Made by a program: the position numbers and the translations under genes. DNA of 64,000 nucleotides from Methanobacteriota archaeon (GTDB lineage Bacteria; Myxococcota; UBA727; JABDBI01). The first letter of the stretch is position 1. Each line of letters begins with the position of its first letter. Location of the stretch: NCBI GenBank assembly GCA_013288705.1, contig JABDBI010000008.1, positions 3,036 to 67,035 of the forward strand, in the 5' to 3' direction. Positions 5,263 through 62,125 of this stretch are shown here, piece after piece. The notes below the pieces were generated by a model. The model had not been told where the DNA came from. It ran no database searches and saw nothing but the letters and a program-made list of their open reading frames with translations.

Positions 5263-5382
5263 GTCATATTTCTCCGCAGAAACTCTTTATATACTCATTT
5301 TCGCATTAGTTCTAGTGCTTTGACTAACGCTATGGTAAATACGAGGCCGCATCGATCGACACCCTAAAAGGCGTGTATCCAT

Positions 5383-7047
5383 ATGAAATTACGTTGTTTT
5401 CTCTGCATTTTTCTGACGCTTCTTGTTGGGTTTACTGTCCTTGCCGGCTGCAAACGCCAAAAGCGGGAGCACACTTTGCGTCTTGAGCTAGGGACAAATT
5501 CAGAACCCGATACGTTAAACCCACTGTTCGCGGAAATGGCAGCCAGCGGTGAAGTGTATACGCTCGGCCATCGCAGCCTCACCATGTACAACGATAAATG
5601 GGAATTGGTTCCGGGCCTGGCAAACGAAGTGCCTTCGGTGAAAAATGGCCAAGTGAAGCTCCTGCCAAGCAAAAAGATGGTGGTGACTTGGAATATTCGC
5701 GAGGACGCCGCCTGGGAAGATGGAGTACCGGTCACAGCAGATGACTTTATTTTTACATGGAAGGTTTGCCTTGATCCAGGTCAGGAAATTATTGACCGTG
5801 ACACTTGCGAGCGCGTTGAATCGATGGTTGCAGCGGGCGCCGACAAAAAGACTCTGGTCGTCACATGGAAAAAGCCCTTCGCGTTTTTCAGTACTTACCG
5901 GGTGCATGAACTTTTACCAGCACATATCCTTCAGCCCCGCTATTTGAAGCCGGGCGGAGGTACCAACGATCTCAAAAAAGACCCCTATGGCCAAAAGCCT
6001 CTTTCCTGTGGGCCCTTTCGCTTTAAAGAATGGGTACCGGGCCAGTACATCACCTATGTGCGCAACGAGAAATTTAGCCCACGACCTTTCTTTGAAGAAA
6101 TTACCTTTCGCATTATCCCAAATACCCAGTCGATGGAATCAAATCTCATTGCTGGCAACATTGCTGGCACCACAACGGCTGGTGGGTTCACTGTTGCCCA
6201 AATCGAAGCGATCAAAAAGCGTGAGGGCGATCGCTTTCGCTACTATTCGGTGCCTGGCATGGTCTGGGCCCACATCGATTTTAATATGGACAACCCTTGG
6301 CTCGCAGACGTACGCGTGAGAAAAGCGCTAGCCCACGCCGTCAATCGCCAAAAAATTATCGATTCGATCTATCACGGGAAATACACACTCGCCAATTCGT
6401 TTTTGCCGCCTAAACATTGGGGCTACGACAACAGCATGCCGATGATCCCCTTTGATCTAAAAAAGGCAGCAAGCTTGCTTGATGAGGCAGGCTGGAAGCA
6501 GGCAAATCCTGGCGAAGTGCGGCAAAATAAAAAGGGCGAGAAGCTTGTGCTCAAAATTAGCGCTGTCGCTGGCATCAAAGATATCGAGCAGATGCAGCAG
6601 GTATTTCAGTCGGATTTGCGCAGTATTGGCGTAGGGCTAGAAATTGACAACAAGCCGGCAAAAGTCTTTTTTGGTGATATCGCTAGGCACCGCAAGTTTC
6701 CCCATTTATCGTTCTACTCTTGGGTTAGTGATCCAGGTTCCTGGGCTCAGACCTTGTGGCATAAAAATTATATTCCAACGCCAAAAAACCAGTGGCAAGG
6801 GCAAAATTATCCCGGTTGGAAAAACGATGAAGCCTCAAAGATTCTCGACGAAATTCCAACCATCTTAGATGAAGCCGAGCGCAAGAAATTAATGAAACGC
6901 GTGCAGGAACTTTGGCTAGAAGCATTACCCGCTATTCCGATGTATTTTCGCCCAGAAGTAGCTATAACCAAGCCTGGACTTAAAAATTATAAACCCACAG
7001 GCACCCAAACACCGGTCACCTGGAATGCCTGGGAGTGGAGTTATTAA
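5383..7047 (+). CDS. ABC transporter substrate-binding lipoprotein, family 5 (peptide/nickel type)
   Basis: Lipoprotein signal (LAGC); about 550 aa; SBP_bac_5-like sequence pattern. Confidence 0.7.
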   Translation: MKLRCFLCIFLTLLVGFTVLAGCKRQKREHTLRLELGTNSEPDTLNPLFAEMAASGEVYTLGHRSLTMYNDKWELVPGLANEVPSVKNGQVKLLPSKKMVVTWNIREDAAWEDGVPVTADDFIFTWKVCLDPGQEIIDRDTCERVESMVAAGADKKTLVVTWKKPFAFFSTYRVHELLPAHILQPRYLKPGGGTNDLKKDPYGQKPLSCGPFRFKEWVPGQYITYVRNEKFSPRPFFEEITFRIIPNTQSMESNLIAGNIAGTTTAGGFTVAQIEAIKKREGDRFRYYSVPGMVWAHIDFNMDNPWLADVRVRKALAHAVNRQKIIDSIYHGKYTLANSFLPPKHWGYDNSMPMIPFDLKKAASLLDEAGWKQANPGEVRQNKKGEKLVLKISAVAGIKDIEQMQQVFQSDLRSIGVGLEIDNKPAKVFFGDIARHRKFPHLSFYSWVSDPGSWAQTLWHKNYIPTPKNQWQGQNYPGWKNDEASKILDEIPTILDEAERKKLMKRVQELWLEALPAIPMYFRPEVAITKPGLKNYKPTGTQTPVTWNAWEWSY

Positions 7048-7050
7048 CCG

Positions 7051-7503
7051 ATGCCACGTACGATCTTACTTGCCGATGACAGCGCTACAGTACGAACTGC
7101 TGTTCAACTGATCTTAGCCAAAAATGAACACTTCACGCTTCTTACTGCAAAGACCGCGGATGAGGCACGCGAGCTGCTTAAAACCGGCAAGCCCGATCTT
7201 CTTGTCGTTGATCACGCTCTGATGAGCGATGATCTGACAAACAGTGGCATACCGATTTTGTCCCCTGCCAAGCCCTTTGATGCCCATAGTTTCATGGGCG
7301 CGCTGCAGGAGGCGCTGCCAACAAAGCAGCAGCAACACAAAGCCGTTGAAGCAGACTTCCAGCTACCCATCTCGCGGGATCGTGTTGAGGAAATTATCCG
7401 GCAGAAGATTGAGGAGATCGCTTGGGAGGTGGTGCCGGAGTTGGCAGAGTCGATTATCCGGGAAGAGATTAAGCGGCTCACACAAAGCCAAGCCAACCCA
7501 TGA
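7051..7503 (+). CDS. single-domain response regulator (receiver domain with about 60-aa C-terminal extension)
   Basis: N-terminus ILLADDSATVRTAVQLIL...KPDLLVVDHALM has a CheY-like receiver pattern. It starts 4 nt after the SBP stop. Confidence 0.6.
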   Translation: MPRTILLADDSATVRTAVQLILAKNEHFTLLTAKTADEARELLKTGKPDLLVVDHALMSDDLTNSGIPILSPAKPFDAHSFMGALQEALPTKQQQHKAVEADFQLPISRDRVEEIIRQKIEEIAWEVVPELAESIIREEIKRLTQSQANP

Positions 7504-7572
7504 TCAGGGCTTGCTGAAATCGTTATTTTTGTTAGGGTAAGCCACGCATTTTTGAATTTGAGGATTGAAGCC

Positions 7573-7785
7573 ATGGCAAAGTGCACACTCACCGGTAAAT
7601 CTTGGATGAACGCCAACCGCGTTTCCCACTCCAACATCAAAACCCATCGTAAAGTTCGCGCGAACATTCAAAGCAAACGCATTTTCGACGTCGAGACTGG
7701 CCGGTTTATTCGCGTCCGACTCTCCACCAGAGCTTTGCGCACGTTGAACAAGAAATCGCTTTCTGCGCTGCTTGCCGGCAAATAA
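7573..7785 (+). CDS. rpmB: 50S ribosomal protein L28
   Basis: MAKCTLTGKSWMNANRVSHSNIKTHRKVRANIQSKRIF matches the L28 family. The ATG at 7573 has an AGGA RBS; the longer TTG-start ORF (7552) is less likely. Confidence 0.75.
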   Translation: MAKCTLTGKSWMNANRVSHSNIKTHRKVRANIQSKRIFDVETGRFIRVRLSTRALRTLNKKSLSALLAGK

Positions 7786-8154: not shown

Positions 8155-9804
<1,650 letters not shown>

Positions 9805-51098: not shown

Positions 51099-52520
51099 TT
51101 ACAGCAGTGCATCCATGACGCTCGCAGCGTCGATCAAGCACACGTGATCGGGTAACTTCATTTTTGGCGGCGAGGGAACAAATAGACCGTAAAGGATCTG
51201 TGCGTTTGGATTGCGATGTATAGGTGGAATGCCTTTAGCGATCAGGCCATTCAAAACGTGTTGAATCGTGGCAGGCTGAACATTTTTGGGAAGAAATTTA
51301 GCCTCGGCGAGCAAGAGCGTTTTGCCATCAAGAGATTCTGCCACAATATCCCATTCGGGCCCTTTTCCGTGCCAAAATCTTCCGGCGGGGCCAAAGTCTA
51401 TGCCACCAAGGCTCGCGCTGAGCGAAGGCACTGCGCTGCGGCATAGTTCTTCCCATGCGCGTCCACACAGCCCTGGAAACCGCTCTTCAAACCATTTTTT
51501 TCGTGGGCCTAGCGGCGACTGTGACAATGTCGACCTTTGTGGGCCTACAGTTTCAAACCAAAATCGCAGAAAAGGATCTTTGATTTTATACAGAGCGCGC
51601 TTGGTTGCATGCTCGGACATATCAAAGGGCACTTCCCGTTCGACCAAGTCAAGTTCCATCAGCTTTGCGAGTGGGCGTGCGAGCGAGGTTGCTGGCAACC
51701 TGAGCCTACTCGCAATTTCGGAAGGCCTACTTGCACCAAGTCCGATAGCGTCGAGAATTGGCCTTACGCTGATGGCCGACGGCGTTTCTTCAAGTAAAAG
51801 CCGGTGCGGCTCCTCATGTAGCGGTCCCATGGCATCCAGCACCAAATTATCTGCTGCGCCGAATAGATCTTGGCCAAAGTCTTCAGCAAGTTCCCAATAC
51901 CGTGGAATTCCCCCCCAAAGTGTATAAGCTTCTACGGCTTTTTGCGCCGTTGACAGCGAGAGAGCAGACTGAATATGGCCTGCCGGTATGGGTGAAAGCT
52001 TGATGAGTTCTTTAGCACGTCCATATAGTGGCGCCGAAGAGTCGAGCACTGCCCCTTGCATCATGCGTTGGCTGGATCCGCAAATAGCAATGATGAGTTT
52101 CGCCGTGGAAGCATCATGATCAATGAAACGCTGCAGAACGCTCGCAAACTCTGGCGAGGTTTCAATCAGATAAGGCAACTCATCAATCACAATGGGCCCG
52201 CGAAAGTTCGCCTGCTTTGCTTGCTTGGCAAGATGCGAAAAAAACACAGTCCAGTGCGGATATTCAACTTGACCAAATCCTGGCAGGCGGGCCTCAAGGG
52301 CTTTTGCAAAGTTGCGTATTTGCAGTGCCATCGCCGATTCATCGGCCACCCAGTAAACGCCATGATGGCGGCGAACCCATTCAAGCAAAAGTCGGGTTTT
52401 ACCGACGCGGCGTCTGCCCCAAATAACGACCAAGCCACCGGATGTTGCTTTCGCAACCCGGTCCAGGCGAGTCAATTCGCGTTCCCGACCAATAAACCTC
52501 ATTATCTTATTATGCACCAA
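51099..52520 (-). CDS. AAA+ ATPase of the Arch_ATPase/ATPase_2 + DUF234 family, copy 1
   Basis: FIGRERELTRLD...VVIWGRRRVGKTRLL (Walker A), IVIDELPYL (Walker B), DUF234-like C-terminal half. Real start is probably the internal ATG (MRFIGRE, about 52502), because the TTG start overlaps an upstream palindrome. Confidence 0.7.
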   Translation of the reverse strand: MVHNKIMRFIGRERELTRLDRVAKATSGGLVVIWGRRRVGKTRLLLEWVRRHHGVYWVADESAMALQIRNFAKALEARLPGFGQVEYPHWTVFFSHLAKQAKQANFRGPIVIDELPYLIETSPEFASVLQRFIDHDASTAKLIIAICGSSQRMMQGAVLDSSAPLYGRAKELIKLSPIPAGHIQSALSLSTAQKAVEAYTLWGGIPRYWELAEDFGQDLFGAADNLVLDAMGPLHEEPHRLLLEETPSAISVRPILDAIGLGASRPSEIASRLRLPATSLARPLAKLMELDLVEREVPFDMSEHATKRALYKIKDPFLRFWFETVGPQRSTLSQSPLGPRKKWFEERFPGLCGRAWEELCRSAVPSLSASLGGIDFGPAGRFWHGKGPEWDIVAESLDGKTLLLAEAKFLPKNVQPATIQHVLNGLIAKGIPPIHRNPNAQILYGLFVPSPPKMKLPDHVCLIDAASVMDALL

Positions 52521-52561
52521 AACATAATGTTTTCAAGCATAATGTTTCTTTGCATAATAAG
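52506..52561. promoter_or_regulatory. palindromic operator-like site upstream of ATPase copy 1 (CTTATTATGCA-N34-TGCATAATAAG with internal CATAATGTTT direct repeats)
   Basis: 11-bp perfect inverted arms seen directly. Coordinates approximate (about +/-1). Confidence 0.5.
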
Positions 52562-52716: not shown

Positions 52717-52807
52717 TTTGCATTGCAAATTGCTTGTGCGGTATTCTTGGCAGTGAAGGATAAAAATTTCCTGCATGCAAGGCGTGCCACACGGAGATGG
52801 AGAGGAT

Positions 52808-54742
52808 ATGAGCAAGATAGTAAGAAGCAATCGGTCGTCTATGCTGGGCGCTGTGGCGCTGATTGGCATGGGCTTGGTTTTTAGTGGCAGTAGTTGCCCC
52901 AACAAGAGTAGTACGTCACCTACACCTACGCAGGGCGCAGAGGGTATTACCTTTCCAGGAACGCTGGCGATAGCCACAATTGGTGCTGGTGGTGCCGGGG
53001 TGCAGTTGCCAACGACAGCGACAGATACCCAAAATAACAACGCATTGCTTCCCATTACTTGGTACGTAGCGCCTGCGCCCAACGGTGCGGCAGTCACCAC
53101 TGGCGGATTATTGACAGCGTCATATATCCCTAACGATACGGCCTGTAATACAACAGAAGCTATTTCTGTTACGGGGTCGGCGACATCTGGCGATGGAACA
53201 CGCACGGCGACTGCAACCTATGCTCTGACGGCAGCCAATACCTGGTGCACGATGGCAGCAGTGGCAGGCGATCCCACGGGGGCCAAAGGGCCTCTGGCTA
53301 CCGGTGTGTTTGCGCTAGCCGCTTCAGGTACAGGTCAGGGTATTGGCGGTACTGCGGGTACTCTGAAATTATATGTTGGAACGGTGAGTGGTCTATCGAC
53401 CTACAATGGAGCTACTGGAACATGGTCGGGTATGACGACTGCTCCGGGTCAGCTCGCTGCAAATGCCATTAATATGAATGGCTTGGCAGTAGATAGCACC
53501 GGGACTGTGTGGGTCGCACCAGCCTCGAAGAACCTTCAGAGCTTCAATGGTGCTGCCTGGACGACGTTCGCCGCCAGCATTCCCAATGCCAACGTGACTG
53601 GTGTTGCGATTGATCCATCGAACAATGTGTACATTGGCACAAGCGCAAGTGCGGCCTATCTTCCCAATACTGCCGCGGCCCCGGCGACTACGACAACCGC
53701 ATTTGTGCCATTGCCGACTGTCACTGCGGGCACCACAGTGATCACATTTGATGCAGCCACACCGGTAGATGCATGGTTTGGAGCCTCAGCGGGCGTGCAG
53801 ATTTTTCCAGTAGGCAGTACCGCCACGAGCACGGCCGTGGCAACTGCAACTTTTGCATCCCCGGCTCTTCTTTTGCCCGGCAGGTTTGGCGGCACTGGTA
53901 CGATTGGTGCCCTTTATCGAGATACAAACAACAATATGTGGGTAGGCCAGCAGTTCACATCTCTCAGCGGTTCGCAAGGGCTGGTGTTGAATGTGTACAC
54001 TCCTCCGACGTCTCGCGCTGCAACGGGTGGCACATGGACAAAACTGCCTGTGATTAATTCAACTACCTCAAGTGGCTCAAACACTGTCAATGGCATTGCT
54101 GTTGATGGAAATGGCAATGCATGGATCGCCACAGCAGGCGGTTTGTATCTGTTTCAGCCGACCACGGCGGGTAATTATTCGGCGGGCACATGGACGTCCT
54201 TCCCAGTAAGCTCGAATGGCCAAGAGGGGCCTGTTGGCGTCGCCATCAACGCAATATGGTACGATTCCGGCGCAAGTACTCTATGGATTGGCACAAACGC
54301 AGGTGGTTTGACTCGCTTGTGGCTGCCTGGATATGTGTATCCTGTAACGGCACCAGCGACAACGACCTTTACATGTGTACCCAGCACAACACCAGCAGCA
54401 GCGACTGCGCAAGCGACCTATTGCGGTACATTCACCGTACCGCAAACCGCTGCTGGCGCAACTTATCCGGCAAATCCCGGGTCGGCTGGATGTATCGGTA
54501 CGCTGCCAACGGGCGCAACGGCGGCCGGCAGCGCGTATACCTTGTGCAGTTGGCTTGCAAACACACCAGCAGCTACCACTACTATTAATAGTGTAGCAGT
54601 AGCCAATGGTGCATGCTCGGCCGTTGCCGCTCCAAATTTTGCTGGGTTATGCGCTAGCGCGACCACTTTGGTGAATGCACAGACAACGCCTACTGGCGCT
54701 GCTTGTGGAACGCTGACCGGGAGCATGTGCATACAACAGTAA
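52808..54742 (+). CDS. surface lipoprotein with Reg_prop (two-component regulator propeller) beta-propeller repeats, Thr/Ala/Gly-rich; paralog 1
   Basis: Lipoprotein signal MSKIVRSNRSSMLGAVALIGMGLVFSGSSC. Recurring [VIL]W[VI]G[TS]xxGGLxx[FLY] motifs (VWVAPA, VYIGTS, MWVGQQ, AWIATAGGLYLF, LWIGTNAGGLTRLW). ATG at 52808 with a GGAGAGGA RBS. Confidence 0.6.
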   Translation: MSKIVRSNRSSMLGAVALIGMGLVFSGSSCPNKSSTSPTPTQGAEGITFPGTLAIATIGAGGAGVQLPTTATDTQNNNALLPITWYVAPAPNGAAVTTGGLLTASYIPNDTACNTTEAISVTGSATSGDGTRTATATYALTAANTWCTMAAVAGDPTGAKGPLATGVFALAASGTGQGIGGTAGTLKLYVGTVSGLSTYNGATGTWSGMTTAPGQLAANAINMNGLAVDSTGTVWVAPASKNLQSFNGAAWTTFAASIPNANVTGVAIDPSNNVYIGTSASAAYLPNTAAAPATTTTAFVPLPTVTAGTTVITFDAATPVDAWFGASAGVQIFPVGSTATSTAVATATFASPALLLPGRFGGTGTIGALYRDTNNNMWVGQQFTSLSGSQGLVLNVYTPPTSRAATGGTWTKLPVINSTTSSGSNTVNGIAVDGNGNAWIATAGGLYLFQPTTAGNYSAGTWTSFPVSSNGQEGPVGVAINAIWYDSGASTLWIGTNAGGLTRLWLPGYVYPVTAPATTTFTCVPSTTPAAATAQATYCGTFTVPQTAAGATYPANPGSAGCIGTLPTGATAAGSAYTLCSWLANTPAATTTINSVAVANGACSAVAAPNFAGLCASATTLVNAQTTPTGAACGTLTGSMCIQQ

Positions 54743-54766
54743 GGTATCCATCATAAGGATGCAGAC

Positions 54767-54797
54767 AGCGGGAAGCGTTGGCTTCCCGCTTTTTTTT
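54767..54797 (+). terminator. rho-independent terminator after propeller lipoprotein 1
   Basis: AGCGGGAAGC-gttg-GCTTCCCGCT stem-loop followed by a 7-T tract. Confidence 0.75.
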
Positions 54798-54805
54798 GGC
54801 GTGTG

Positions 54806-54906
54806 GAGAAAGTGTCATCTGAACTAGACAAAAATCAGTGAAAACTGCAAAGTACAGATGACAGCTCGAGAATTTATGAACCTTCAAGAAGCTGCCCGAA
54901 ATCGAT
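54806..54906 (+). repeat. direct repeat R1, copy a (about 100 bp; contains a pseudo 3' end of a DUF234-ATPase gene)
   Basis: About 80% identical to 56784..56882, with an identical 37-bp core gaatttatgaaccttcaagaagctgcccgaaatcgat. The reverse complement of the core encodes ...IDFGQLLEGS*, the C-terminus of ATPase copy 2. Confidence 0.7.
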
Positions 54907-54957
54907 AACCTTGTCGAAATAAATTCACTCAGCTTATCATCCGCAATCAACATTTTG

Positions 54958-55886
54958 CTAGAGGTCAAGCTGTTTGATCCGCTCGCCGATGGTTCGGATA
55001 GTCTCCTCCACTTCTGTAAATGGCGGCAAGTCTTCTGGCTGGAAAACGAACGGTTCCATATCAGGGTTGAAAATTCGGCGAATACGGGCCGTAACATCGC
55101 TTGAATTGCTAAACAACGGTGCTGCCGAAAGTTTGAATTTGGACCATTTCTCACGTGTATTAAGCTCTTCATCGTCTCGCCGAATATTTTGTACCCGCGG
55201 ATAAAAATCCGCGCTGCTTAAAAAATTGGCGACGTCAGTTTGGCGAAGGAGCATCGTCAGGTCATAAAAATGGCGAACCCGAGCCCGTGTTTCCTTGATT
55301 GATGCGCTGCCGTCCATCATACTTGCGTAGAAGAGGGAAAGAATTTTCTCAGCGAACGTTATCCTGTAGTCTAAGACATAAACAAAAATAGGCCCCAGTT
55401 CATATTCTTGAATCACGGATATTGATGTATGGTACGTCGAAATTTCCCCTTTTTGTTTGTGACGCCGTCTTGGACCACTTCCTCGAAAGGCGGTTGCGTT
55501 AACAATTTCGCCATTCTTTTTAGAAGTGCTTCTGTTTGAGACTGAGTGCGAGAGTTTTCTGCTACCGCAAGATCAATGTCTTCGGAAAAACGTCGTACGA
55601 TATTGTAAGCTTTGGAAAGAGAAGTTCCGCCCTTAAATATAATCTCCGCGGATTCCTTGGCTTGACTCAAGCGTTTCAGAATGAGGGTTAGCCAATAGTC
55701 TTTTTCGACGTAAACTTCCCTGATGCCCAAATCCTGGGATGTTGCAGCGATGAGCGTCTGAAAGTCCTGGATGTTCTCGTGCAATTTCAACGTATTCTCC
55801 AAAAGCTTCGATTGGGCAACTGCGCATCTGAAACACCAAATGTGTAAGCAGTCATGGGGTTCAGATCTTTTTTCAACTTCTTCCAT
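54958..55886 (-). pseudogene. AbiEii/AbiGii-family nucleotidyltransferase toxin (type IV TA), disrupted by a frameshift near 55416
   Basis: N-part (55413..55886) has FKGGTSLSKAY...RRFSEDIDL, the AbiEii/DUF1814 NTase motif. The C-part (54958..55416) continues in another frame with a 4-nt overlap. Confidence 0.6.
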
Positions 55887-56500
55887 TGCGGCAACTGCAG
55901 ATTTTGAAGAAGAGCACCTAAGAGTGCGCGAACCGATGGTCTATATGGCTGTGACAAAGTAGTCAGCCTACTTATTTCGCGCGCACTTAATCTCTGCAGA
56001 GAAGTCTTTAGCCTTTGAAGTGTAACGTCGATGCTACCATTAGGTATGCTCTTGAATAGGCGAAGGGTTTCAAGAATATTGGTGAGGGCTGACTCCTCTG
56101 GTTGTGCATCTTTGCTGCCACCGACGATAAATTTGATGCGCAGAGCGCCAACACGACGCGTTCTGTTTGAACGGCTGCCGAGAATCGTGATTTCGCTTGG
56201 AATTTGCGAGCTCACACCGATATCATTTAAAGCAGAAAAGCCAGCAATGTAGCCCCCTGTTTGCTGAAGTAATTTATCGATGATTTGGCCTTCGGACGGC
56301 ATCAATAATCCGAATTGCGTTTTCTGAGCCACATAGTATTGCCCCTTGGATAGCCTTCTTAAGCCACCAGTTTTGCTGAGCCGGCTTAGGTTGAGAGCTA
56401 CCGCCTGAAAATTACCAAGGTCAGCGAAATCTGTGTAATTGAGGATACTGCCCGCAGGAAATTGCGCTATTTTTTCCTTTACTTGTGAAGCAATAGACAT
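55787..56500 (-). CDS. AbiEi-family antitoxin / transcriptional regulator (type IV TA)
   Basis: Position immediately upstream of the NTase toxin and overlapping it; N-terminal wHTH-like region (LSRLSKTGGLRRLSKGQYY). ATG at 56500 with an AGAGGTGG RBS. Family assignment from memory. Confidence 0.5.
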   Translation of the reverse strand: MSIASQVKEKIAQFPAGSILNYTDFADLGNFQAVALNLSRLSKTGGLRRLSKGQYYVAQKTQFGLLMPSEGQIIDKLLQQTGGYIAGFSALNDIGVSSQIPSEITILGSRSNRTRRVGALRIKFIVGGSKDAQPEESALTNILETLRLFKSIPNGSIDVTLQRLKTSLQRLSAREISRLTTLSQPYRPSVRALLGALLQNLQLPQWKKLKKDLNPMTAYTFGVSDAQLPNRSFWRIR

Positions 56501-56527
56501 GACCACCTCTTTTACCAAGGTAGCATA

Positions 56528-56559
56528 ATGATAAGTTTATCGCAATAAAAACTTATCAT
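56528..56559. promoter_or_regulatory. perfect 11-bp inverted repeat ATGATAAGTTT-N10-AAACTTATCAT upstream of the AbiEi start
   Basis: Seen directly, 28-59 nt upstream of the ATG at 56500. AbiEi-family antitoxins are known autoregulators that bind inverted repeats. Confidence 0.5.
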
Positions 56560-56602
56560 CCATAAATCGACATTTTGCTGTTTTGCAGACGATTATGAAT
56601 GC

Positions 56603-56711
56603 CGCCCCGATGGGGCTTCAAAATTAGGGAGGCGTCTTACCTGGGGTTCCCGCGCGCCAAAGCGCACGCGTCCACCCCAGGCTATATTTTGTCACGCCCA
56701 AGGCGTTTAGA
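56603..56711 (+). repeat. direct repeat R2, copy a (109 bp, GC-rich, internally palindromic: CCCCGATGGGG; CCTGGGG...CCCCAGG)
   Basis: 106/109 identical to 58423..58531. Confidence 0.8.
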
Positions 56712-56783
56712 CCTGAAGAAGATCTTCGTCGAGGGGGGTGAAAAAATCTCACCAAATCAAGAAAACATCAATTTGGCGCGCGG

Positions 56784-56882
56784 AAAAGTGTAATCTGGAC
56801 TAGTTAAAAATTAGGGAAAACTGAAAAGTGCAGGTGACGGTTCGGGAATTTATGAACCTTCAAGAAGCTGCCCGAAATCGAT
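56784..56882 (+). repeat. direct repeat R1, copy b (includes the last 11 codons and stop of ATPase copy 2 plus about 65 bp downstream)
   Basis: See R1 copy a. Confidence 0.7.
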
Positions 56883-58305
56883 GATAGAGGCAAAAAAATC
56901 CTGTTGCTCAATCTCGTCATCAATGCCATTGACGTGGATCAGGACTGGCCTTACGGAATAAGCTCGCAATTGCTTTAACCGATCAATTTTTGTCTTTATC
57001 TCCTCAATAACCTCTACACCAACAGGTTTTTTGGAAAATTTTATTTCACACACATACAATGTATTAAATTTTGTCTGTATCATGTAGTCAATCTGACAAC
57101 CCTGGCGGTTCGTGGTCGGTCGCTGAAAGTAGGGGTTCTCAGAAACAATCTCTTCAGCACGTAGCCCCAGTGCCTTATGAATTTCTTTGCGATTATTGAG
57201 CACCAGATTTTCGAACTGCAATCCAAAAATTGTTTGCAACTCAGGCAGGCTACTAATCGATTTTATGGAAAAACTATCCCGCGCAATCTTGGTGTGATAT
57301 TTGGCAATATATTTTAAATAAAAACGTAGATAATTATCGCTTAGACGATATTTACTCAACTTCGAGTCATGCCCACTTTCAATGCGCCAGGTGTAATCTC
57401 GTTTAACAAAGCCGGCCAATGCAAGCTCCTCAAGATACTCACTAAATCTTCCCGTTTGCTTAATCTGTAAAGCGTTACAAATCTCCTGTGGCTCTTTCGA
57501 TCCTGACACCAAGGTTTGTACAATTTCTCGATACAGAGCGCTGTCGCGCAAAAATAAATCTGAAAAAATATTATTAAATTCATTCACCAAAAACCCGCCC
57601 TTTTTAAAGCAAAGATTTCTGATGTTTTCTTCGGCACTCAGCCTGAAGTCTACTTCTTCAAGGTACTTTGGCACACCACCCGTAACGGCAAAAATTTTCA
57701 GCTTTTCGTAGGCAGAGATGTGTTTTGCGCTTGCGCCCCAAAAAAGAGCACAGTCGTTGAGCGAAATCTCTTCAAGCGTTAACGTATATGAAATGCGACC
57801 CAAGAATCCCGTACTGCTCAAGATGTTTTTTTCAATCCATGAAGATGCTGAGCCGCACACAATGAAGATGAGTTGGTCATTTTTTTTAAGATGCTGATCC
57901 CAAAAGTTCTTGATCTTCCCAAGAAACGTTGGATCCTCAGATCCCATCCAAGAAATTTCATCAAACAACAACAACACTTTCCCCGATTTTACTTGCTCAC
58001 TCACAGCCCATAATGCGTCGCCCCAATCGTCATAGCGGGCCTTTGGCGTTTTAAATTGTTGTGCCATCTGGAGGGAAAATTCTTCTAACTGATGCTGAGT
58101 TGTCACATGTTTTTCAGGCGCCAGCCCCATAAAGCTGTAAAATGCATCAAACTGCTTGCCAAACTGCTCAATCAGCCGGCTCTTTCCAATACGCCTTCTG
58201 CCCCGCACCACAATAAATGATGCTGACCTTTTTTTGGTAAAACGTTCAAGTTCTGCAAGTTCTTTTTTTCGCCCAATAAACTGATGGGCCCGTTTTTTTG
58301 ACATA
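56850..58305 (-). CDS. AAA+ ATPase of the Arch_ATPase/ATPase_2 + DUF234 family, copy 2
   Basis: FIGRKKELAELERF...IVVRGRRRIGKSRLI (Walker A), LLFDEISWM (Walker B). Paralogous to 51099..52520. ATG at 58305 (MSKKRAHQF, GGGTGG RBS) preferred; the TTG at 58334 lies inside the upstream palindrome. Confidence 0.7.
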
Positions 58306-58320
58306 GTTACCACCCTATTT

Positions 58321-58412
58321 GGTACTGCAAACAACGATTTTTAATGTTTGCAGTACCAATCTAGCACCTGTCGCTGGTACTGCAAATCACAATTCTTGTT
58401 ATTTTCAGTACC
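58321..58412. promoter_or_regulatory. two tandem palindromic operator-like sites upstream of ATPase copy 2
   Basis: GGTACTGCAAAC-N13-GTTTGCAGTACC (perfect) and GGTACTGCAAAT-N13-ATTTTCAGTACC (one mismatch). Same 12-bp half-site, centres about 55 bp apart, 16-107 nt upstream of the start codon. Confidence 0.6.
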
Positions 58413-58422
58413 GGGTGAGTGT

Positions 58423-58531
58423 CGCCCCGATGGGGCTTCAAAATTGAGGAGGCGTTTTACCTGGGGTTCCCGCGCGCCAAAGCGCACGCGTCCACCCCAG
58501 GCTATATTTTGTCACGCCCAAGGCGTTTAGA
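58423..58531 (+). repeat. direct repeat R2, copy b
   Basis: 106/109 identical to 56603..56711. Confidence 0.8.
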
Positions 58532-58632
58532 ACGGGTCCCAAATTTGCATAGTGCCCATTGATTAGAATTGCCATTACGATGGAGCGGCCACTTGTTTGC
58601 TTTATAGCAGGCCTCTGTATTACGATTGTTCC

Positions 58633-60000
58633 ATGCGTAATTTCCTGCCACTTATCGCCCTATTAGCGGTGCATCTCGTTGCTTGCTCCACGCCCAGCAC
58701 CGTGTTGGACATCAGTGCGCCTGCGGTGATTGGGACAGGCACCAATTCGTCGGTTTCGGTTGATGTTGCGCAAGCGAAGAGTGCTGTTTTTTTGAACTGG
58801 ACCCAAGTGGACACCACTGGGCCACGTGTGACTTGGCTAGCAAATCAACAGGCGGTGAATCCGACGTTTTCTGTGGCTTCGCTTTCAAACTGTAGCGAAG
58901 AAGAACAGGTTACACTGCAAGTGCAGGCAACCGATGCTTTTGGCAACGTGAATGCCTCACAGGTGACGATCGGAGTGAAGGAACTCTGGTGCACCTACAA
59001 GACTCCGGCAGCGAATATGTTGAGCAACATCGTGACTCGGGTTGCTGCCAATAATGGTGTGATCTGGGTCGGTACGGATTCGGGTCTGAATCGCTTTGAT
59101 GGCATTAACTGGCAAGCATTTACCGAGCAAAGCACAGCGTCGATCGCGGGTGGACTCGCGGCCAATCAGGTACGCGCGCTGGCTGTGACATCAAATGACG
59201 ACGTTTGGGTGGCTGTTTATACACCATCTCGCATTTCGACAATTTTTGACACCGTCACGGGGGTGAATGTCTACCACGATAAAACCAAGACCTGGCAACA
59301 TTTCACCAAGGGCGCCAATGAGCTGAATAGCAATACGGTCTATACGCTGGCTCTTGCAGAGCCGGATATGCTTGTGGGGACGGACACAGGCGTAAGTACA
59401 TTTCAATTGGCGACGACAACATGGAGTAGCTATTCAGTTGTTGATAAGGTTAGAGCGATTACGCGTTCGTTAACAAACCAAGATTGGTTAGGCACCGACG
59501 GTGGTGTTTTCGTCTATTCCGATGGCCAAAAAGTGACGCAATATGACAACACTGCCACCGGTGGAGTGCTCGTTAGAAGTTTAATTACCGGCAGCTTTGA
59601 CTTTCGTGCTGCTATTACAGACGGCCAGGGTAGCATCTGGTTTGGCGAAGGCGCAGGTGTCGCGCGTTATCTAGCCCCACAGCTCCAAGGCGGAATTCTT
59701 CCAACCTGGAAGCTCTTCACGGCAGGCGCCGTCGGCGGTGGCCCTGCCAGTAACGATATTCGCGCATTTGCCCTCGACGGCAACGGCAATCTCTGGATCG
59801 CCACAGGTGGCGGATTGAGCACGTTTTTCATTACCGGAGCCAACAAAGGGCAATGGAATTCCTTTTCATCTGACTTGGTCAATACGCCAAATGGTTTGCA
59901 AACCAACGATGTGCGAGATGTCACCTACGACAGCGAAAATAATTACTTATGGATCGGCACAAATGGCGGCGGACTGACGCGGTATTGGCTTGGGGGATAG
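58633..60000 (+). CDS. surface lipoprotein with Reg_prop beta-propeller repeats; paralog 2
   Basis: Lipoprotein signal MRNFLPLIALLAVHLVAC. Motifs VIWVGTDSGLNRFDG, MLVGTDTGVSTF, LWIATGGGLSTFF, LWIGTNGGGLTRYW. Confidence 0.6.
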   Translation: MRNFLPLIALLAVHLVACSTPSTVLDISAPAVIGTGTNSSVSVDVAQAKSAVFLNWTQVDTTGPRVTWLANQQAVNPTFSVASLSNCSEEEQVTLQVQATDAFGNVNASQVTIGVKELWCTYKTPAANMLSNIVTRVAANNGVIWVGTDSGLNRFDGINWQAFTEQSTASIAGGLAANQVRALAVTSNDDVWVAVYTPSRISTIFDTVTGVNVYHDKTKTWQHFTKGANELNSNTVYTLALAEPDMLVGTDTGVSTFQLATTTWSSYSVVDKVRAITRSLTNQDWLGTDGGVFVYSDGQKVTQYDNTATGGVLVRSLITGSFDFRAAITDGQGSIWFGEGAGVARYLAPQLQGGILPTWKLFTAGAVGGGPASNDIRAFALDGNGNLWIATGGGLSTFFITGANKGQWNSFSSDLVNTPNGLQTNDVRDVTYDSENNYLWIGTNGGGLTRYWLGG

Positions 60001-60001
60001 C

Positions 60002-62125
60002 ATGCGTTTGAGGTTATATTTCTTCTTGCTTCTTGTTCTCACGTTAACGGCATTCCAATGTGATTTTGGCACATTGAAAAAGTTTGGGTGGGACACTGAG
60101 ACGCTGAATGAGCCTGCGGCTCCTGTCAACGACGAGCCGACCGTAGGCGGCAAAGCGAGAGTGAATCCCGCGACGCCGCCAGCAGGAACCACGCCTCCAA
60201 CGGGCACAACACCGCCACCAGACGATAATGGGCCACCGGGCGGACAACCACCACCACCACCACCGGCAGACACGAACAATGGCGGTGCTGCAAACACGGC
60301 TGCGCCGCGGGGTGTTCGATCGCCATGGAACACGATCTTACCTTATGATCACCAATTCACCACTGCTGCATTTGACGCCCAGGGCAATATTTGGCTTGGC
60401 ACAAAAGCTGGTGGATTGATCAAGTACAACGAGACCACCAAGCAAGCGATTGTCTATCGGCAATCCACAAGCCGTATCACGTCGGATCATGTGACTGCGA
60501 TTGGGTTTGATGCACAAAATATTTATGTTGGTACGGAAAAGGGTTTGAATATTCTCACGGGGACGAGGTGGTCAGCACCGACGGAGCTGGCGCATCCTGT
60601 TCGCGGTATTGGTGACAAATATGTGGCGACGGAAGAGGCACTTTGGCATTTTGCGGCCGATGGCTGGAAGAAAGTCGATGGTCCAACCGGCATGACGGAT
60701 AAGATCACCGCTTTTGCCAACAAAGGTGGCGTGTTGTGGCTTGGTACGGAGAAGGGCTTGTGGAAAAAAGACGCCACCGGCTGGTCTGAAGTGACAGATG
60801 TGAAGCACCCAGTAACGGCGATCGCGTTTACTGGTGATGATTGGATATGGGTGGGAACAAAGGGCAAGGGACTATATGTATTTAACAAGACTGTGTGGAA
60901 AGACATTCTGGCTCAACATGACATTACGCAAATGGCTGTTCATGGCAATCAGCTTTGGGTGATTGGCGACCACAAAATTTTTCTGCGACGCGACCAAGAT
61001 ACCGACATATTTGTGCCAAGATATATAAGCAGCGCGCAGTGGTCCGCACTTGCTATTCAGGAGGCTCGGGGAGAAATACTCTTTGCCGGAGCAACAAATA
61101 TTGCCGGTGTTCTGAAAAAGGACTCGACAGCAGCTCTGGCCGACGACGGCGCGACAAAGATCCCATTGACAGGCTTGGTAAGCAAGCAAATCCTCAAACT
61201 GGCTTTACGAAACAAAGACAACAAATCCGAATTATGGATCGGGACCGACAAAGGCTTGCAGCGTTACGACTATGAATCGAAATCGATCAACGCAACCTAT
61301 GTGGCGACGCCAGGCCAGCTCGACGACAACCACATCGATGAGTTAGGTGTTACGCAGGATGGCGAGGTATGGGTGGTTGACCATGGAAACAGCGCAAAGC
61401 ACTTTGATCCAGACAGTACAGCTGCGCATTGGACAGTCCTTTCCAGGCATCATACGACGATGGCAAGGCACTTTGGGGCAATTCTTGCTACTAATAACAA
61501 CAATGCATATATTATAGCTATTACTTACAATTACTCCTACCCCGCAATTGGCATTTTTAACGCATCTAGCAAGCGGATACAAAAAATTCAGTTCGCTACT
61601 GCAGGTAACATCACAGCCATAGGCTTCGTCGGTCCACACCAATGGTATGCCACCTCGAAAAAGGGTATCTACGTATACGATGGCCTGACTGAAAATAGCG
61701 CCTTCCGGAGAGTGATAGAAGTGGCCTTGCATGATCGACATCCCGCCATTAATGTCATGCGCAGCGATAAGCATGATGCTCCCGAACATGTATGGGTCGG
61801 TTCTAATGGAAAAGGCGTCACCCGAATAGATATGCTGCAACTCATCAACCACCCGGAGGGGGCTGCATCGGTGCATGGGTTAGAGGGTAAGACTGTCAAA
61901 GCCATTGCTGTCGACAAGGCGAAAAACGCATGGTTCGCTACCATCGACGGTCTAGAGAGCTTTAATGGTACTGAATGGAAGTCTTACGTAGTTGATCCAA
62001 GTCTTCCTCGAGGCTTAAAATCCAACCACATCAACGATTTGCTCTACGACGCCACCAACGATATCCTGTGGATTGCCACCAACGATGGCCTCACAAGTCT
62101 ACAGCCATCCCTGCTTGCGAAATAG
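60002..62125 (+). CDS. secreted Reg_prop beta-propeller protein with Pro-rich N-terminal linker; paralog 3
   Basis: Signal peptide MRLRLYFFLLLVLTLTAFQC; P/T/G-rich linker including a (CCA)6 tract. Motifs IWLGTKAGGLIKYN, LWLGTEKGLWKK, IWVGTKGKGLYVFN, LWIGTDKGLQRYD, LWIATNDGLTSL. Starts 1 nt after the paralog 2 stop with a GGGGGA RBS. Confidence 0.6.
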   Translation: MRLRLYFFLLLVLTLTAFQCDFGTLKKFGWDTETLNEPAAPVNDEPTVGGKARVNPATPPAGTTPPTGTTPPPDDNGPPGGQPPPPPPADTNNGGAANTAAPRGVRSPWNTILPYDHQFTTAAFDAQGNIWLGTKAGGLIKYNETTKQAIVYRQSTSRITSDHVTAIGFDAQNIYVGTEKGLNILTGTRWSAPTELAHPVRGIGDKYVATEEALWHFAADGWKKVDGPTGMTDKITAFANKGGVLWLGTEKGLWKKDATGWSEVTDVKHPVTAIAFTGDDWIWVGTKGKGLYVFNKTVWKDILAQHDITQMAVHGNQLWVIGDHKIFLRRDQDTDIFVPRYISSAQWSALAIQEARGEILFAGATNIAGVLKKDSTAALADDGATKIPLTGLVSKQILKLALRNKDNKSELWIGTDKGLQRYDYESKSINATYVATPGQLDDNHIDELGVTQDGEVWVVDHGNSAKHFDPDSTAAHWTVLSRHHTTMARHFGAILATNNNNAYIIAITYNYSYPAIGIFNASSKRIQKIQFATAGNITAIGFVGPHQWYATSKKGIYVYDGLTENSAFRRVIEVALHDRHPAINVMRSDKHDAPEHVWVGSNGKGVTRIDMLQLINHPEGAASVHGLEGKTVKAIAVDKAKNAWFATIDGLESFNGTEWKSYVVDPSLPRGLKSNHINDLLYDATNDILWIATNDGLTSLQPSLLAK

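Follow-up and report, generated by a model that had tools for sequence, protein, structure and literature searches.

Two tandem repeat-flanked candidate anti-phage ATPase modules, one of them overwritten by an AbiE pair, in a low-GC insert between two host genes

RESULTS

Layout of the islet

Within the 64-kb window (the whole stretch of DNA that was analysed) a 3.7-kb insert of low GC content (44% compared to 51-53% in the flanks) separates two host genes which are paralogous to each other. The insert carries two tandem, repeat-flanked candidate anti-phage ATPase modules. In one of them an AbiE toxin-antitoxin pair has overwritten the ATPase, and this pair is by now broken as well. The following features were assigned:

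52775-54742: left host gene, Reg_prop beta-propeller (Pfam)
54767-54790, plus strand: intrinsic terminator of the left host gene and left islet edge (terminator scan, GC step)
54795-54906, minus strand: R1a, remnant tail of a lost ATPase module (alignment to R1b)
54900-54960, minus strand: R3a, degenerate copy of the 3' half of an ATPase operator plus the AbiE operator
54958-55790, minus strand: AbiEii toxin gene, disrupted (partial Pfam and PADLOC matches)
55787-56500, minus strand: AbiEi antitoxin (DUF6088 type), intact, 237 aa
56526-56580, minus strand: R3b, AbiE promoter region with palindromic operator at 56528-56559
56553-56595, minus strand: remnant of an ATPase-type operator and ribosome-binding region, from the displaced ATPase
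56596-56711, plus strand: R2a, non-coding element of 116 nt, predicted to fold into three hairpins, located 3' of ATPase2 and 5' of the AbiE unit
56712-56771, minus strand: unique 60-nt spacer (terminator scan)
56772-56882, minus strand: R1b, tail belonging to ATPase2 itself (10 terminal codons, stop codon, 78 nt downstream)
56850-58304, minus strand: ATPase2, 484 aa (Pfam ATPase_2; PADLOC PDC-S27)
58321-58412, minus strand: two palindromic operator-like sites upstream of ATPase2 (58321-58358 and 58375-58412)
58416-58531, plus strand: R2b, second R2 copy and right islet edge
58633-60000, plus strand: right host gene, with R2b about 100 nt upstream

Read along the minus strand, the right unit consists of R2b, the twin operators, the intact PDC-S27 ATPase, R1b and the terminator/spacer; it is followed by R2a, an ATPase-type operator remnant, the AbiE operator, AbiEi, the disrupted AbiEii, the last 10 ATPase codons and R1a. 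Both units share the outline R2, operator, gene and ATPase tail (R1). The order given by the first-pass annotation (R1a, AbiEii/AbiEi, R2a, R1b, ATPase, R2b) and its locations of both repeat pairs were thereby confirmed on the sequence. The spacer shows no similarity to the outer flanks; joined to the initial bases of R1b it folds into a hairpin (56778-56750, terminator scan) that resembles a terminator for ATPase2. Close relatives of the source genome were not found in the databases, and a search of 5.8 billion protein clusters with the flanking gene returned no relative above 27% identity.

The intact ATPase module

ATPase2 matches the PADLOC model PDC-S27 over its full length (6e-93) and is, judged by its sequence, a member of this candidate defence family. 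It comprises an AAA+/STAND-like NTPase domain, a winged helix and a C-terminal domain with D406, E420 and K422 invariant in the homologue columns, and its structure model (pLDDT 87.7) gave fold matches to 2qen, 2fna, ORC and NLR. Homologous modules (53-84% identity) occur in very different taxa and genomic contexts. The twin-palindrome layout is also found upstream of these homologues, with half-sites that vary between them, but they carry neither R2 nor the non-coding part of R1, and in the last 36 nt of the ATPase gene the closest of them match at just 20-22 positions. The right unit is an intact and probably self-regulated PDC-S27 module.

The AbiE pair and the relics of a second ATPase

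AbiEi is well preserved (Pfam DUF6088, 3.8e-17; PADLOC AbiEi, 8e-42; 45-57% identity to homologues) and its gene overlaps that of AbiEii by 4 nt. AbiEii lies in two different frames, an N-terminal part at 55413-55790 and a C-terminal part at 54958-55416, and lacks about 45 codons corresponding to residues 128-174 of the homologue (tblastn with the intact 293-aa protein of homologue locus L016). Because the toxin gene is split by this deletion and the frameshift, which are also present in the Logan contig L002, the pair is probably inactive as read from its genes. The earlier description of an AbiE pair as cargo therefore holds for the presence of the genes and not for an intact toxin. The palindromic operator upstream of the pair (GATAAGTTT-N10-AAACTTATC) is conserved upstream of the AbiEi homologues at L016, L017 and L019. 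Directly after the AbiEii stop codon, and abutting the ATPase remnant, lies its degenerate copy R3a (local alignment score R3a/R3b 24 compared to 8.6 ± 1.5 for shuffled sequences), so that R3 constitutes a third repeat pair that brackets the AbiE genes.

Of the ATPase module, the left unit retains only R2, a single ATPase-type operator remnant and the 10 terminal codons with the DNA that follows them; the AbiE operon has taken the place of all that lay between about the ATPase start codon and the tenth codon from the end. Between R2a and the AbiE operator lie 43 nt that align to the start-proximal operator of homologue locus L025 (35/45, p<0.001), where a blast match of 19/20 was also obtained; the alignment extends to the position of the L025 ATG, and significant alignments to three other ATPase operators were obtained as well. 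As these ATPase relics are in the right order and orientation, slot 1 is best described as a gutted second ATPase module. The proposal that R1a is an ATPase 3' remnant, and that an ATPase therefore formerly occupied this slot, gains a second line of evidence from the operator remnant. The slot-1 operator is closer to that of the foreign homologue than to those of ATPase2, with which it shares only short alignments of about 70-78% (21/27 and 20/28); there is one such operator in slot 1 and there are two in slot 2.

Extent and nature of the repeats

A gapped alignment of R1a and R1b has 112 columns with 14 mismatches and 1 gap, which is about 87% identity and not the roughly 80% first estimated; the identical 37-nt tract reported with that estimate was found again at 54870-54906. 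In R1a the coding part covers 54877-54906, the stop codon 54874-54876 and the DNA downstream of the gene 54795-54873. The identical tract comprises the last 10 ATPase codons (11 had been counted), the stop codon and 5 further bases. Identity is unevenly distributed: the 37 nt adjoining the gene are 100% identical, the 75 nt away from it 80% (Fisher p=0.002). R2, first described as 109 bp with 97% identity, is a real repeat that spans 116 nt in the gapped alignment (5 mismatches, 96%, GC 59.5%). Here identity is 88% in the gene-proximal 41 nt, and the remaining 75 nt form an identical core (p=0.005). We conclude that R1 simply represents the end of the ATPase module, with the close of the coding sequence and the DNA behind it, and that only R2 behaves as a boundary, which is at odds with the earlier view of equivalent slots with dedicated R1 and R2 borders.

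The first-pass annotation had also proposed a search for further copies of both repeats. Repeat finding detected none in the window, a covariance model of R2 run with filters off likewise found no further R2 copy there, and neither repeat turned up next to 90 homologue loci (ATPase and AbiE) or in those public collections that were searched. For R2 the search covered 764 kb of loci, GTDB representative genomes, JGI metagenomes, IMG/VR, plasmids and phages.

Direct repeats around ATPase homologues

A significant direct repeat between upstream and downstream DNA was observed at 16 of 73 testable ATPase homologue loci compared to 2 of 71 control genes (p=0.0006); the other 57 homologue loci have none. 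The repeats are 29 to 226 nt long and consist of whatever DNA lies upstream, for example the 3' end of gpsA at L059 or of lepA at L092, although at L074, L093, L075 and L025 they are operator or terminator copies and not target DNA. The DNA between the repeats measures 1.6-2.2 kb in the window and the eight other loci measured, and 1.6-1.7 kb, the span of operator plus coding sequence, in six of these nine (1704 nt in the window). Differences between repeat copies were synonymous in 31 and non-synonymous in 25 cases, an enrichment of synonymous changes (p=1.6e-5 against the neutral expectation), which indicates that at least some copies were imported after they had diverged in different lineages as working genes. 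L059 has an array of gpsA, ATPase, a gpsA 3' copy, two other genes and a further gpsA 3' copy, and L041 repeats the pattern of the window with an ATPase, then a methyltransferase and then a 136-nt ATPase 3' remnant. By eye, no common motif was evident at the repeat junctions of different loci, and five of six repeat-bounded loci checked have no recombinase neighbour. The locus thus shows a type of ATPase gene, PDC-S27, that often lies between direct repeats of local DNA; neither the frequent flanking repeats nor the conserved twin operators are described in the literature searched.

DISCUSSION

Origin of the two units

In its present state the islet represents ordinary defence-island decay; gene displacement in a defence hot-spot, as suggested earlier, fits the PDC-S27 and AbiE cargo and the low-GC insert. 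As the best reading of its origin, to which we assign a probability of roughly 0.45, we regard it as a small, horizontally acquired defence islet which grew by serial accretion next to R2 and was then partly overwritten, and not as a set of exchangeable cassette slots. According to this reading the two ATPase units would not stem from one recent duplication on the spot. Two related but distinct modules would have been deposited in succession beside the same 116-nt R2, which would have served as a homology anchor or att-like boundary. The second arrival would have re-created a copy of R2, for instance when a circular or end-joined fragment with R2 and the module integrated through a single crossover. 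Short-tract gene conversion between the two copies may have taken place before one was overwritten. R2 could in addition function in its own right, for example as an Acido-Lenti-1-like small RNA. In slot 1 the AbiE operon replaced the ATPase, and its toxin gene later lost about 45 codons and the reading frame.

The reading draws on the ordered ATPase relics of slot 1, the repeat-bracketed homologue loci, the excess of synonymous differences between repeat copies, the L059 array, the L041 pattern and the low GC content, and on the identity profile along the units, which changes from 96% in R2 to about 70-78% in the operator DNA, 37/37 in the coding tail and 80% in the non-coding part of R1. Because these shifts are abrupt and the slot-1 operator is foreign-like, two lineages joined at recombination junctions fit better than uniform decay of a single duplicate. 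However, several observations speak against accretion. The locus is present in one genome alone and so offers no empty or intermediate state for comparison; the 60-nt spacer is not accounted for; and most homologue loci lack a flanking repeat, some of the existing ones being operator or terminator copies. Moreover, the 37/37 identity of the coding remnant is unlike two diverged modules and calls for a further assumption, either gene conversion or a very recent common origin, and since R1a has no R2 copy downstream, the older insertion must have left no repeat of its own.

A live rival, which we consider possible but less probable, is tandem duplication in situ. A resident unit of R2, operator, ATPase and R1 would have been copied head to tail, AbiE would later have replaced the left coding sequence, and the patchy identity would be due to relaxed constraint together with gene conversion over short tracts. 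The interleaved order R2b, R1b, R2a, R1a is the one expected, the tails are identical although this stretch varies among homologues, tandem ATPase paralogues exist at L025, L038 and L068, and the R3 duplicate around the AbiE genes shows that local duplication does occur here. Nevertheless, a duplication junction should join R1 directly to R2, whereas the unique spacer intervenes; identity falls from 100% to about 70% in short patchy alignments over a few hundred bases; slot 1 has a single operator that is nearer to the foreign homologue's; and the divergence between repeat copies at comparable loci took place under purifying selection, an argument for import over local copying.

We consider it unlikely that the islet is a true cassette system, in which R1 and/or R2 would be sites for a recombinase encoded elsewhere and the ATPase and AbiE would be swapped as cassettes, as in integrons or in integrase-less elements mobilized in trans. 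Adjacent units with the same ends and different cargo, the perfectly conserved cores of 37 and 75 nt, the predicted structure of R2 and repeat-bounded arrays with different cargo at homologous loci such as L059 would suit this model. But R1 is the gene's own tail and not an independent site, and the AbiE operon, having its own duplicated ends and lying on top of ATPase relics, points to illegitimate replacement and not to precise exchange. The earlier statement that no integrase or attC-like site is present stands: we found no recombinase among the about 27 window ORFs scanned, and in R2 neither R''/R' boxes, nor an end-to-end attC palindrome, nor terminal inverted repeats, nor a core shared with the spacer or the outer flanks. 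The lack of recombinase neighbours at five of six repeat-bounded homologue loci, of a junction motif evident by eye between loci, and of R1 and R2 at any other site searched, argues in the same direction.

Still somewhat less probable is an origin of R2 as a small structured repeat in its own right, be it a REP/MITE-like element or an Acido-Lenti-1-like sRNA gene, which landed twice or was copied on its own, unrelated to the arrival of the cargo. Folding of R2, proposed earlier as a check of an sRNA or MITE origin, gave the three hairpins with weak z-scores (-1.1 to -2.9). Both copies match the Rfam family Acido-Lenti-1 with 28.4 bits, below the gathering score of 37 (R2a at 56640-56707; E=0.0013 for the region and 0.02 for the whole window), but 66.7 kb of unrelated control loci gave chance matches with similar E-values (0.03-0.07). 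The match coincides with the 75-nt identical tract, the linker GGCUAUAUUUUGUCACGCC nearly equals the Lentisphaera seed sequence GGCUUUAUUUUGUCAUGCC, tandem arrangement is common in this multi-copy family, and none of the five R2a/R2b differences affects a paired position in the proposed fold. On the other hand, two near-identical copies provide nothing for covariation, no third copy was found in the collections listed above, neither a consistent target-site duplication nor a terminal inverted repeat can be seen, and the same placement of both copies relative to an ATPase-type operator argues against separate landings.

That a metagenome assembler wrongly joined AbiE and ATPase strain variants of one locus in tandem is very improbable: the source is indeed a metagenome-assembled contig, and the Logan assembly of SRR8432536 has two short contigs (L001 with the R2b variant and the ATPase, L002 with the R2a variant and AbiE) which both end within the identical cores, as a repeat in two copies would cause, and hence do not confirm the unit order, but a strain bubble would not create the unique spacer linking R2a to R1b, R1a and R1b have different outer parts and run into distinct flanks, and a large-k assembly can bridge identical tracts as short as 37 and 75 nt.

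Comparison with known systems

Defence islands and integration hot-spots can accrete in tandem, as in integrase-less cis-mobilisable elements at a gene 3' end (CIME/ICESt type) and tycheposon arrays. The islet resembles them in its foreign low-GC defence modules stacked between host genes, in direct repeats of target sequence that bound each module, in the three-repeat-copy array with different cargo at L059 and in older modules that decay or are overwritten. It differs in that neither the islet nor the scanned window ORFs include a tyrosine or serine recombinase, the repeats at the ATPase loci vary in length with no common core, and one gene plus its operator, 1.6-1.7 kb in all, would make up the mobile unit.

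With integron cassette arrays, including CALIN (attC clusters without integrase), the islet shares similar structured repeats of about 100 nt that alternate with unrelated genes, and toxin-antitoxin and defence genes as typical cargo. However, R2 has no RYYYAAC / GTTRRRY (R''/R') boxes and is not an imperfect palindrome from end to end, there are just two copies, the genes bring along promoters and operators of their own, one of the 'borders' (R1) belongs to a gene, and no intI is among the scanned ORFs. Like Acido-Lenti-1 (RF01687), R2 has two hairpins joined by a conserved AGGCUA-containing linker, but it stays below the gathering score, carries an extra 24-nt stem inside hairpin 1 and an extra 5' hairpin, and occurs in two copies only. 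This family is multi-copy, sometimes tandem, of unknown function and sometimes located near mobile group II introns (Weinberg et al. 2010, PMC2864571).

The AbiE unit corresponds to type IV toxin-antitoxin/abortive infection systems in the 4-nt overlap of DUF6088 AbiEi and AbiEii and in the upstream inverted-repeat operator kept in homologues; it differs in the split toxin gene and the second, degenerate operator copy downstream of the operon. For most candidates of the class to which PDC-S27 belongs defence activity is listed as pending in the literature consulted, which reports none for PDC-S27 itself (PMC12988326). ATPase2 agrees with this candidate single-gene system of PADLOC (an ATPase_2/DUF234-type AAA+ ATPase) in its full-length match, its domain layout and its occurrence as a solo gene in varied contexts.

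Organization of the islet

The islet was resolved from the sequence and by repeat finding, which confirmed the order R1a, AbiEii/AbiEi, R2a, R1b, ATPase, R2b proposed in the first-pass annotation. R1 denotes the ATPase tail and R2 a 116-nt boundary repeat; the left unit between R1a and R2a, which carries AbiE, is referred to as slot 1 and the ATPase2 unit as slot 2.

Elements of the islet in gene orientation (minus strand, right to left; window coordinates)
58531–58416: R2b, first element of the islet
58412–58321: two palindromic operator-like sites upstream of ATPase2
58304–56850, minus strand: ATPase2
Tail of ATPase2: R1b
Between R1b and R2a: unique 60-nt spacer containing a terminator-like hairpin
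56711–56596: R2a
56595–56553: ATPase-type operator remnant, 43 nt
Between operator remnant and AbiEi: AbiE operator
56500–55787, minus strand: AbiEi, intact
55790–54958, minus strand: AbiEii, in two frames, disrupted
54960–54900: R3a, degenerate second copy of the AbiE promoter region
R1a: last 10 ATPase codons, stop codon and downstream DNA
Beyond R1a: terminator of the left host gene, last element

The GC content of the islet is 44% compared to 51–53% on both sides, and it is flanked by two paralogous Reg_prop beta-propeller genes; around it three such paralogues stand in tandem (52775–54742, 58633–60000 and 59990–62125). Searched against 5.8 billion protein clusters, the right-flank protein (58633–60000) matched itself and then sequences of at most 27–29% identity over part of its length. 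Since it has no relative above 29% local identity, the genome represents a very poorly sampled lineage, and it is without close relatives in the databases. A distant second PDC-S27-type ATPase (51099–52520, minus strand) lies 2 kb left of the islet. It is 25% identical to ATPase2, matches Pfam ATPase_2, DUF234 and a winged helix, has a host-like GC content (~52%) and carries at its start codon a palindrome with 27-nt arms (52506–52561), which echoes the operators of the family. Elsewhere in the window, an inverted repeat at 3262–3343 (23-nt arms, 91% complementary, 36-nt loop) gave weak miRNA-like Rfam matches on both strands.

Judged by profile matches, the genes of the islet belong to known families, namely PDC-S27 and AbiE. 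ATPase2 matches the PADLOC profile of PDC-S27, a candidate single-gene defence family, over its full length (E=6.1e-93, residues 8–478 versus profile positions 3–470 of 474), as well as Pfam ATPase_2. PDC-S27 counts as a putative defence family, and for most candidates of its class experimental validation is still awaited (PMC12988326); as a family member ATPase2 is a candidate defence gene. The structural model of ATPase2 is confident (pLDDT 87.7), and its fold matches archaeal AAA+ ATPases (2qen, 2fna), ORC/Cdc6 and NLR NTPases; a single-sequence search against PDB returned nothing, and a profile search gave weak matches to the 2qen ATPase and a winged-helix regulator. D406, E420 and K422 in the C-terminal domain are invariant and may form a PD-(D/E)xK-like nuclease motif. 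We infer the nuclease fold from these three residues because the full-length fold search was dominated by the N-terminal AAA+ and winged-helix parts. Plasmid and viral searches with the ATPase yielded 14 plasmid records and 9 viral loci, none of them informative. With 9 matches in the 2.9 million viral contigs of IMG/VR, the gene is therefore rarely phage-borne. Six predicted viral or prophage contigs in IMG/VR (L100–L105) carry a 65%-identical ATPase.

Extent and identity of the repeats

The repeat pairs are both real and exceed chance expectation by a wide margin. Repeat finding placed R1 at 54809–54906 and 56785–56882 (88% over 98 nt) and R2 at 56596–56711 and 58416–58531 (96% over 116 nt), and by gapped alignment R1 covers 54795–54906 and 56772–56882 (112 columns, 14 mismatches, 1 gap). 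We observed that identity is unevenly distributed within both pairs. In R1 the 37 gene-adjacent nt are 100% identical and the 75 gene-distal nt 80% (p=0.002), while in R2 the 41 nt closest to the gene are 88% identical and the other 75 nt 100% (p=0.005). The repeat finder detected no third copy of R1 or R2 in the 64-kb window. Two short Logan contigs from one run (SRR8432536), the only matches of the exact-protein look-ups, match the two units exactly, one contig per unit, and end within the identical cores. In the R1 hairpin, no compensatory changes between the two copies were visible by eye.

AbiE and the remnants in slot 1

Between R2a and the AbiE operator lies an ATPase-type operator, as its alignments show. 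A blast match of 19 of 20 nt falls exactly on the operator of the ATPase homologue locus L025, and the remnant aligns with the start-proximal operator of this locus at 35 of 45 positions, reaching as far as the ATG position (p<0.001). Its alignments with three further ATPase operators are significant too; an initial comparison with the operators of the window itself was not significant. At the opposite end of slot 1, R1a contains the last 10 ATPase codons and the stop codon, from which an ATPase had previously been proposed to have once occupied the slot; the operator remnant adds a second relic and so strengthens this proposal. Given the remnants at both ends, AbiE thus replaced an ATPase approximately from its start codon to codon −10.

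AbiEi (PADLOC match 8e-42) and AbiEii (1.9e-41 for the N-terminal and 1.3e-18 for the C-terminal part) overlap by 4 nt, and this pair of antitoxin and nucleotidyltransferase genes is identified by its profile matches as a predicted AbiE type IV toxin–antitoxin system. Homologues of AbiEii are single ORFs of 293–324 aa. Compared to an intact 293-aa homologue, residues 1–127 are found here in one frame and residues 175–293 in another, with ~45 residues absent between the two parts. The toxin gene is therefore disrupted, and no intact AbiEii reading frame is present in the islet. In another AbiE homologue locus (L019, 1089–1653) AbiEii is likewise called as two short ORFs (110 + 90 aa), so that decay of the toxin gene may be frequent in this subfamily of AbiE.

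The AbiE genes are flanked by a third repeat pair, R3 (R3a 54900–54960, R3b 56526–56580; score 24 versus a null of 8.6 ± 1.5), which combines ATPase-operator with AbiE-operator sequence, the latter being conserved upstream of AbiEi homologues. R3a joins the ATPase tail at a shared TATC/ATC (by eye), and the R3/AbiE junction looks like an illegitimate, microhomology-type rearrangement and not like a precise cassette exchange. Flanking repeats were absent from the AbiE homologue loci. The first-pass annotation had suggested cassette exchange or gene displacement: the displacement of an ATPase by AbiE stands, whereas the exchange is not supported, as the rearrangement looks illegitimate and R1 is a gene tail.

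Comparison with ATPase homologue loci

ATPase2 has thousands of relatives (53–84% identical) across very different taxa, each of them a solo gene with a genomic context of its own. Twin palindromic operators are common to them and have half-sites that vary between homologues. Within 130 nt upstream of the homologues (e.g. L011, L013, L014, L022–L025 and L031) two palindromic sites occur in all, with half-sites such as GGTACTG..., GGATCC... and GGAACC...; these differences are as expected if the winged helix of each protein recognizes its own operator. The homologue loci lack R2 and the non-coding part of R1.

PDC-S27 modules are often bracketed by long local direct repeats, with no recombinase gene among the scanned neighbours. 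When the 900 nt before the gene were compared with the 500 nt after it, a direct repeat was significant in 16 of 73 testable ATPase loci compared to 2 of 71 size-matched control genes (p=0.0006). L035–L037 form one lineage, the collapse of which gives 14 of 71 (p=0.002), and among the 16 repeats those of L074, L093, L075 and L025 are copies of operators or terminators. Most testable ATPase loci have no flanking repeat. The repeats are local sequence of 29–226 nt, and several of them are the 3' end of a co-oriented upstream gene, namely gpsA (L059), lepA (L092), a patatin-like gene (L091) and a YdjM-like gene (L020). For eight loci and the window, the DNA between the repeats measures 1.6–2.2 kb, and in 6 of these 9 cases 1.6–1.7 kb, corresponding to operator plus coding sequence; the distance from R2b to R2a is 1704 nt. 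We found no junction motif common to the repeat-bounded loci by eye, and of the 6 loci with scanned neighbours 5 had no integrase beside them. Synonymous changes are overrepresented between repeat copies (31 synonymous to 25 non-synonymous; p=1.6e-5 versus the neutral expectation), which indicates that at least some copies diverged as working genes in other lineages before they were imported.

The locus L059 contains an array of gpsA, ATPase, a copy of the gpsA 3' end, two further genes (one a 97-aa ORF, the other coding for a TPR protein) and a second such gpsA copy. The gpsA 3' end thus occurs in three places (5675–5851, 7469–7645 and 9227–9334), and the first two copies differ by 11 synonymous to 4 non-synonymous changes. 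The locus L041 is organized like the window, with a full ATPase, then a methyltransferase and then a 136-nt ATPase 3' remnant. Its ATPase 3' copies (3728–3863 and 5254–5389) are 86% identical with mainly synonymous changes, and a truncated tnpB immediately follows the remnant. TnpB/IS607-type genes were seen beside or near the ATPase in three loci (L089 3444–5238, L011 5680–6807 and L041 5369–5902), and in L089, which has a serine recombinase and TnpB, the IS end abuts the upstream direct repeat; their proximity to the ATPase modules may be coincidence. Just upstream of the ATPase homologue in L058, ~4–5 overlapping tandem copies of an ~89-nt repeat occupy 5407–5796.

History of the two units

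Weighing repeats and operators together, we favour a serial accretion of two related ATPase modules beside R2. Three features speak for this: the 96% identity of R2 gives way abruptly to an operator region of different build, the slot-1 operator is nearer to that of a foreign homologue than to ATPase2's own operators, and a unique spacer occupies the junction. As a possible route, a circular fragment carrying R2 and a module could have integrated by a single crossover. The R2 copies flank ATPase2 just as local repeats flank its homologues, R1 is no more than the ATPase tail, and AbiE occupies the wreck of an older ATPase module. The main weakness of this reading is the coding tail, which is identical at 37 of 37 positions, so that gene conversion or a recent common origin must be invoked.

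The same tail makes an in-situ tandem duplication a serious rival, as the stretch is poorly conserved among homologues (20–22 of 36 nt in the closest ones). However, a simple recent duplication is at odds with the non-uniform identity (100%, 96%, 80% and ~70% over patchy alignments), and the unique 60-nt spacer is found instead of a direct head-to-tail junction.

Nature of R2 and less likely explanations

R2 has a GC content of 59.5% and is non-coding; its two copies would be read in different frames. Folding, which had been suggested as a check for an sRNA, predicts three hairpins, internal and separate, with modest z-scores (−1.1 to −2.9). The sole notable Rfam match, to Acido-Lenti-1 (RF01687), stays below the gathering score (28.4 bits for both copies versus 37). 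It is a multi-copy family of unknown function whose members often stand in tandem. The match comes from the 3' 68 nt of R2 (E=0.0013 over the region and 0.02 over the window), the architecture of two hairpins plus linker agrees with that of the family, the linker is nearly identical to that of a Lentisphaera seed sequence, and the two R2 copies do not differ within the motif and so show no covariation. As a control, 66.7 kb of unrelated homologue loci were scanned: they contained no Acido-Lenti-1 and gave chance matches at similar E-values (0.03–0.07), and we therefore treat the membership of R2 as unproven.

A dedicated cassette-recombination system, in which R1 and/or R2 would act as recombination sites, is less likely. 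Integron attC sites carry complementary R'' (RYYYAAC) and R' (GTTRRRY) boxes at their ends and fold into one long imperfect hairpin. R2 ends at its 3' side in GTTTAGA, and by manual inspection the complementary TCTAAAC is absent at or near the 5' end. No integron integrase (intI) or other recombinase was detected among the ~27 window ORFs scanned with Pfam, and in place of a run of attC-like sites only two R2 copies occur in 64 kb; the locus thus does not fit an attC cassette array. A site-specific integrative element was rejected as well: the spacer has no att core in common with the DNA flanking the islet beyond R1a on the left and R2b on the right, R2 in turn shares none with the spacer or these outer flanks, the scanned ORFs contain no recombinase and no junction motif was seen by eye.

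An independently mobile R2 is also less likely. A MITE or IS-derived element was rejected for lack of terminal inverted repeats and of a consistent fixed-length duplication flanking R2; R1 against the reverse complement of R2 gave only a marginal, GC-rich 12–15-nt match (shuffle p ~0.01 for the R1b pair, the R1a pair not being significant). This match joins the left end of R1b (56772–56786, TTTGGCGCGCGGAAA) to the R2 apical stem (56647–56661) with 12 nt exact in inverted orientation, and may simply be GC-rich low complexity. An R2 covariance model found no further copy in the window (filters off) or over 97 loci (764 kb), an exact 20-mer of R2 had 0 matches in JGI metagenome contigs and 0 in IMG/VR, and blastn of R2 plus spacer against plasmids and phages returned nothing. 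The core pattern RGGCTWTATTTTGTCAYGCC had 8 matches in GTDB representative genomes, all without hairpin context and therefore regarded as chance. Finally, an assembly artefact is less likely too.

Implications and comparison with known systems

In this locus, the changes that a small defence islet undergoes with time can be read from the sequence. A candidate defence gene would have been stacked twice, and in one copy the stretch from start codon to tail was then replaced almost precisely by a toxin–antitoxin operon that is itself now decaying. The more useful result is comparative, in that about one-fifth of the testable ATPase modules lie between direct repeats of local DNA, in many cases a housekeeping gene's 3' end. 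If upheld in complete genomes with matched empty sites, this would offer a concrete and testable approach to the question of how defence modules of a single gene arrive at hot-spots without recognizable mobile-element genes.

We consider it improbable that PDC-S27 modules are themselves mobile units which duplicate upstream sequence on entry and need no conventional integrase. Such a unit may consist of the twin operator and one gene (1.6–1.7 kb), with duplications varying from ~30 to 230 nt. Its own protein, with ATPase, winged helix and putative PD-(D/E)xK nuclease, might help integration, and the window would then record two successive insertions at one preferred, structured target, R2. Alternatively, modules might be excised as circles and re-enter related genomes by a single crossover. 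If true, mobile PDC-S27 modules would be a previously unrecognized way of seeding defence hot-spots that have no mobile-element genes.

On the favoured reading of serial accretion, the islet would work like accretion at a defence hot-spot, and it resembles the tandem stacks that integrase-less elements form at the 3' end of a gene.
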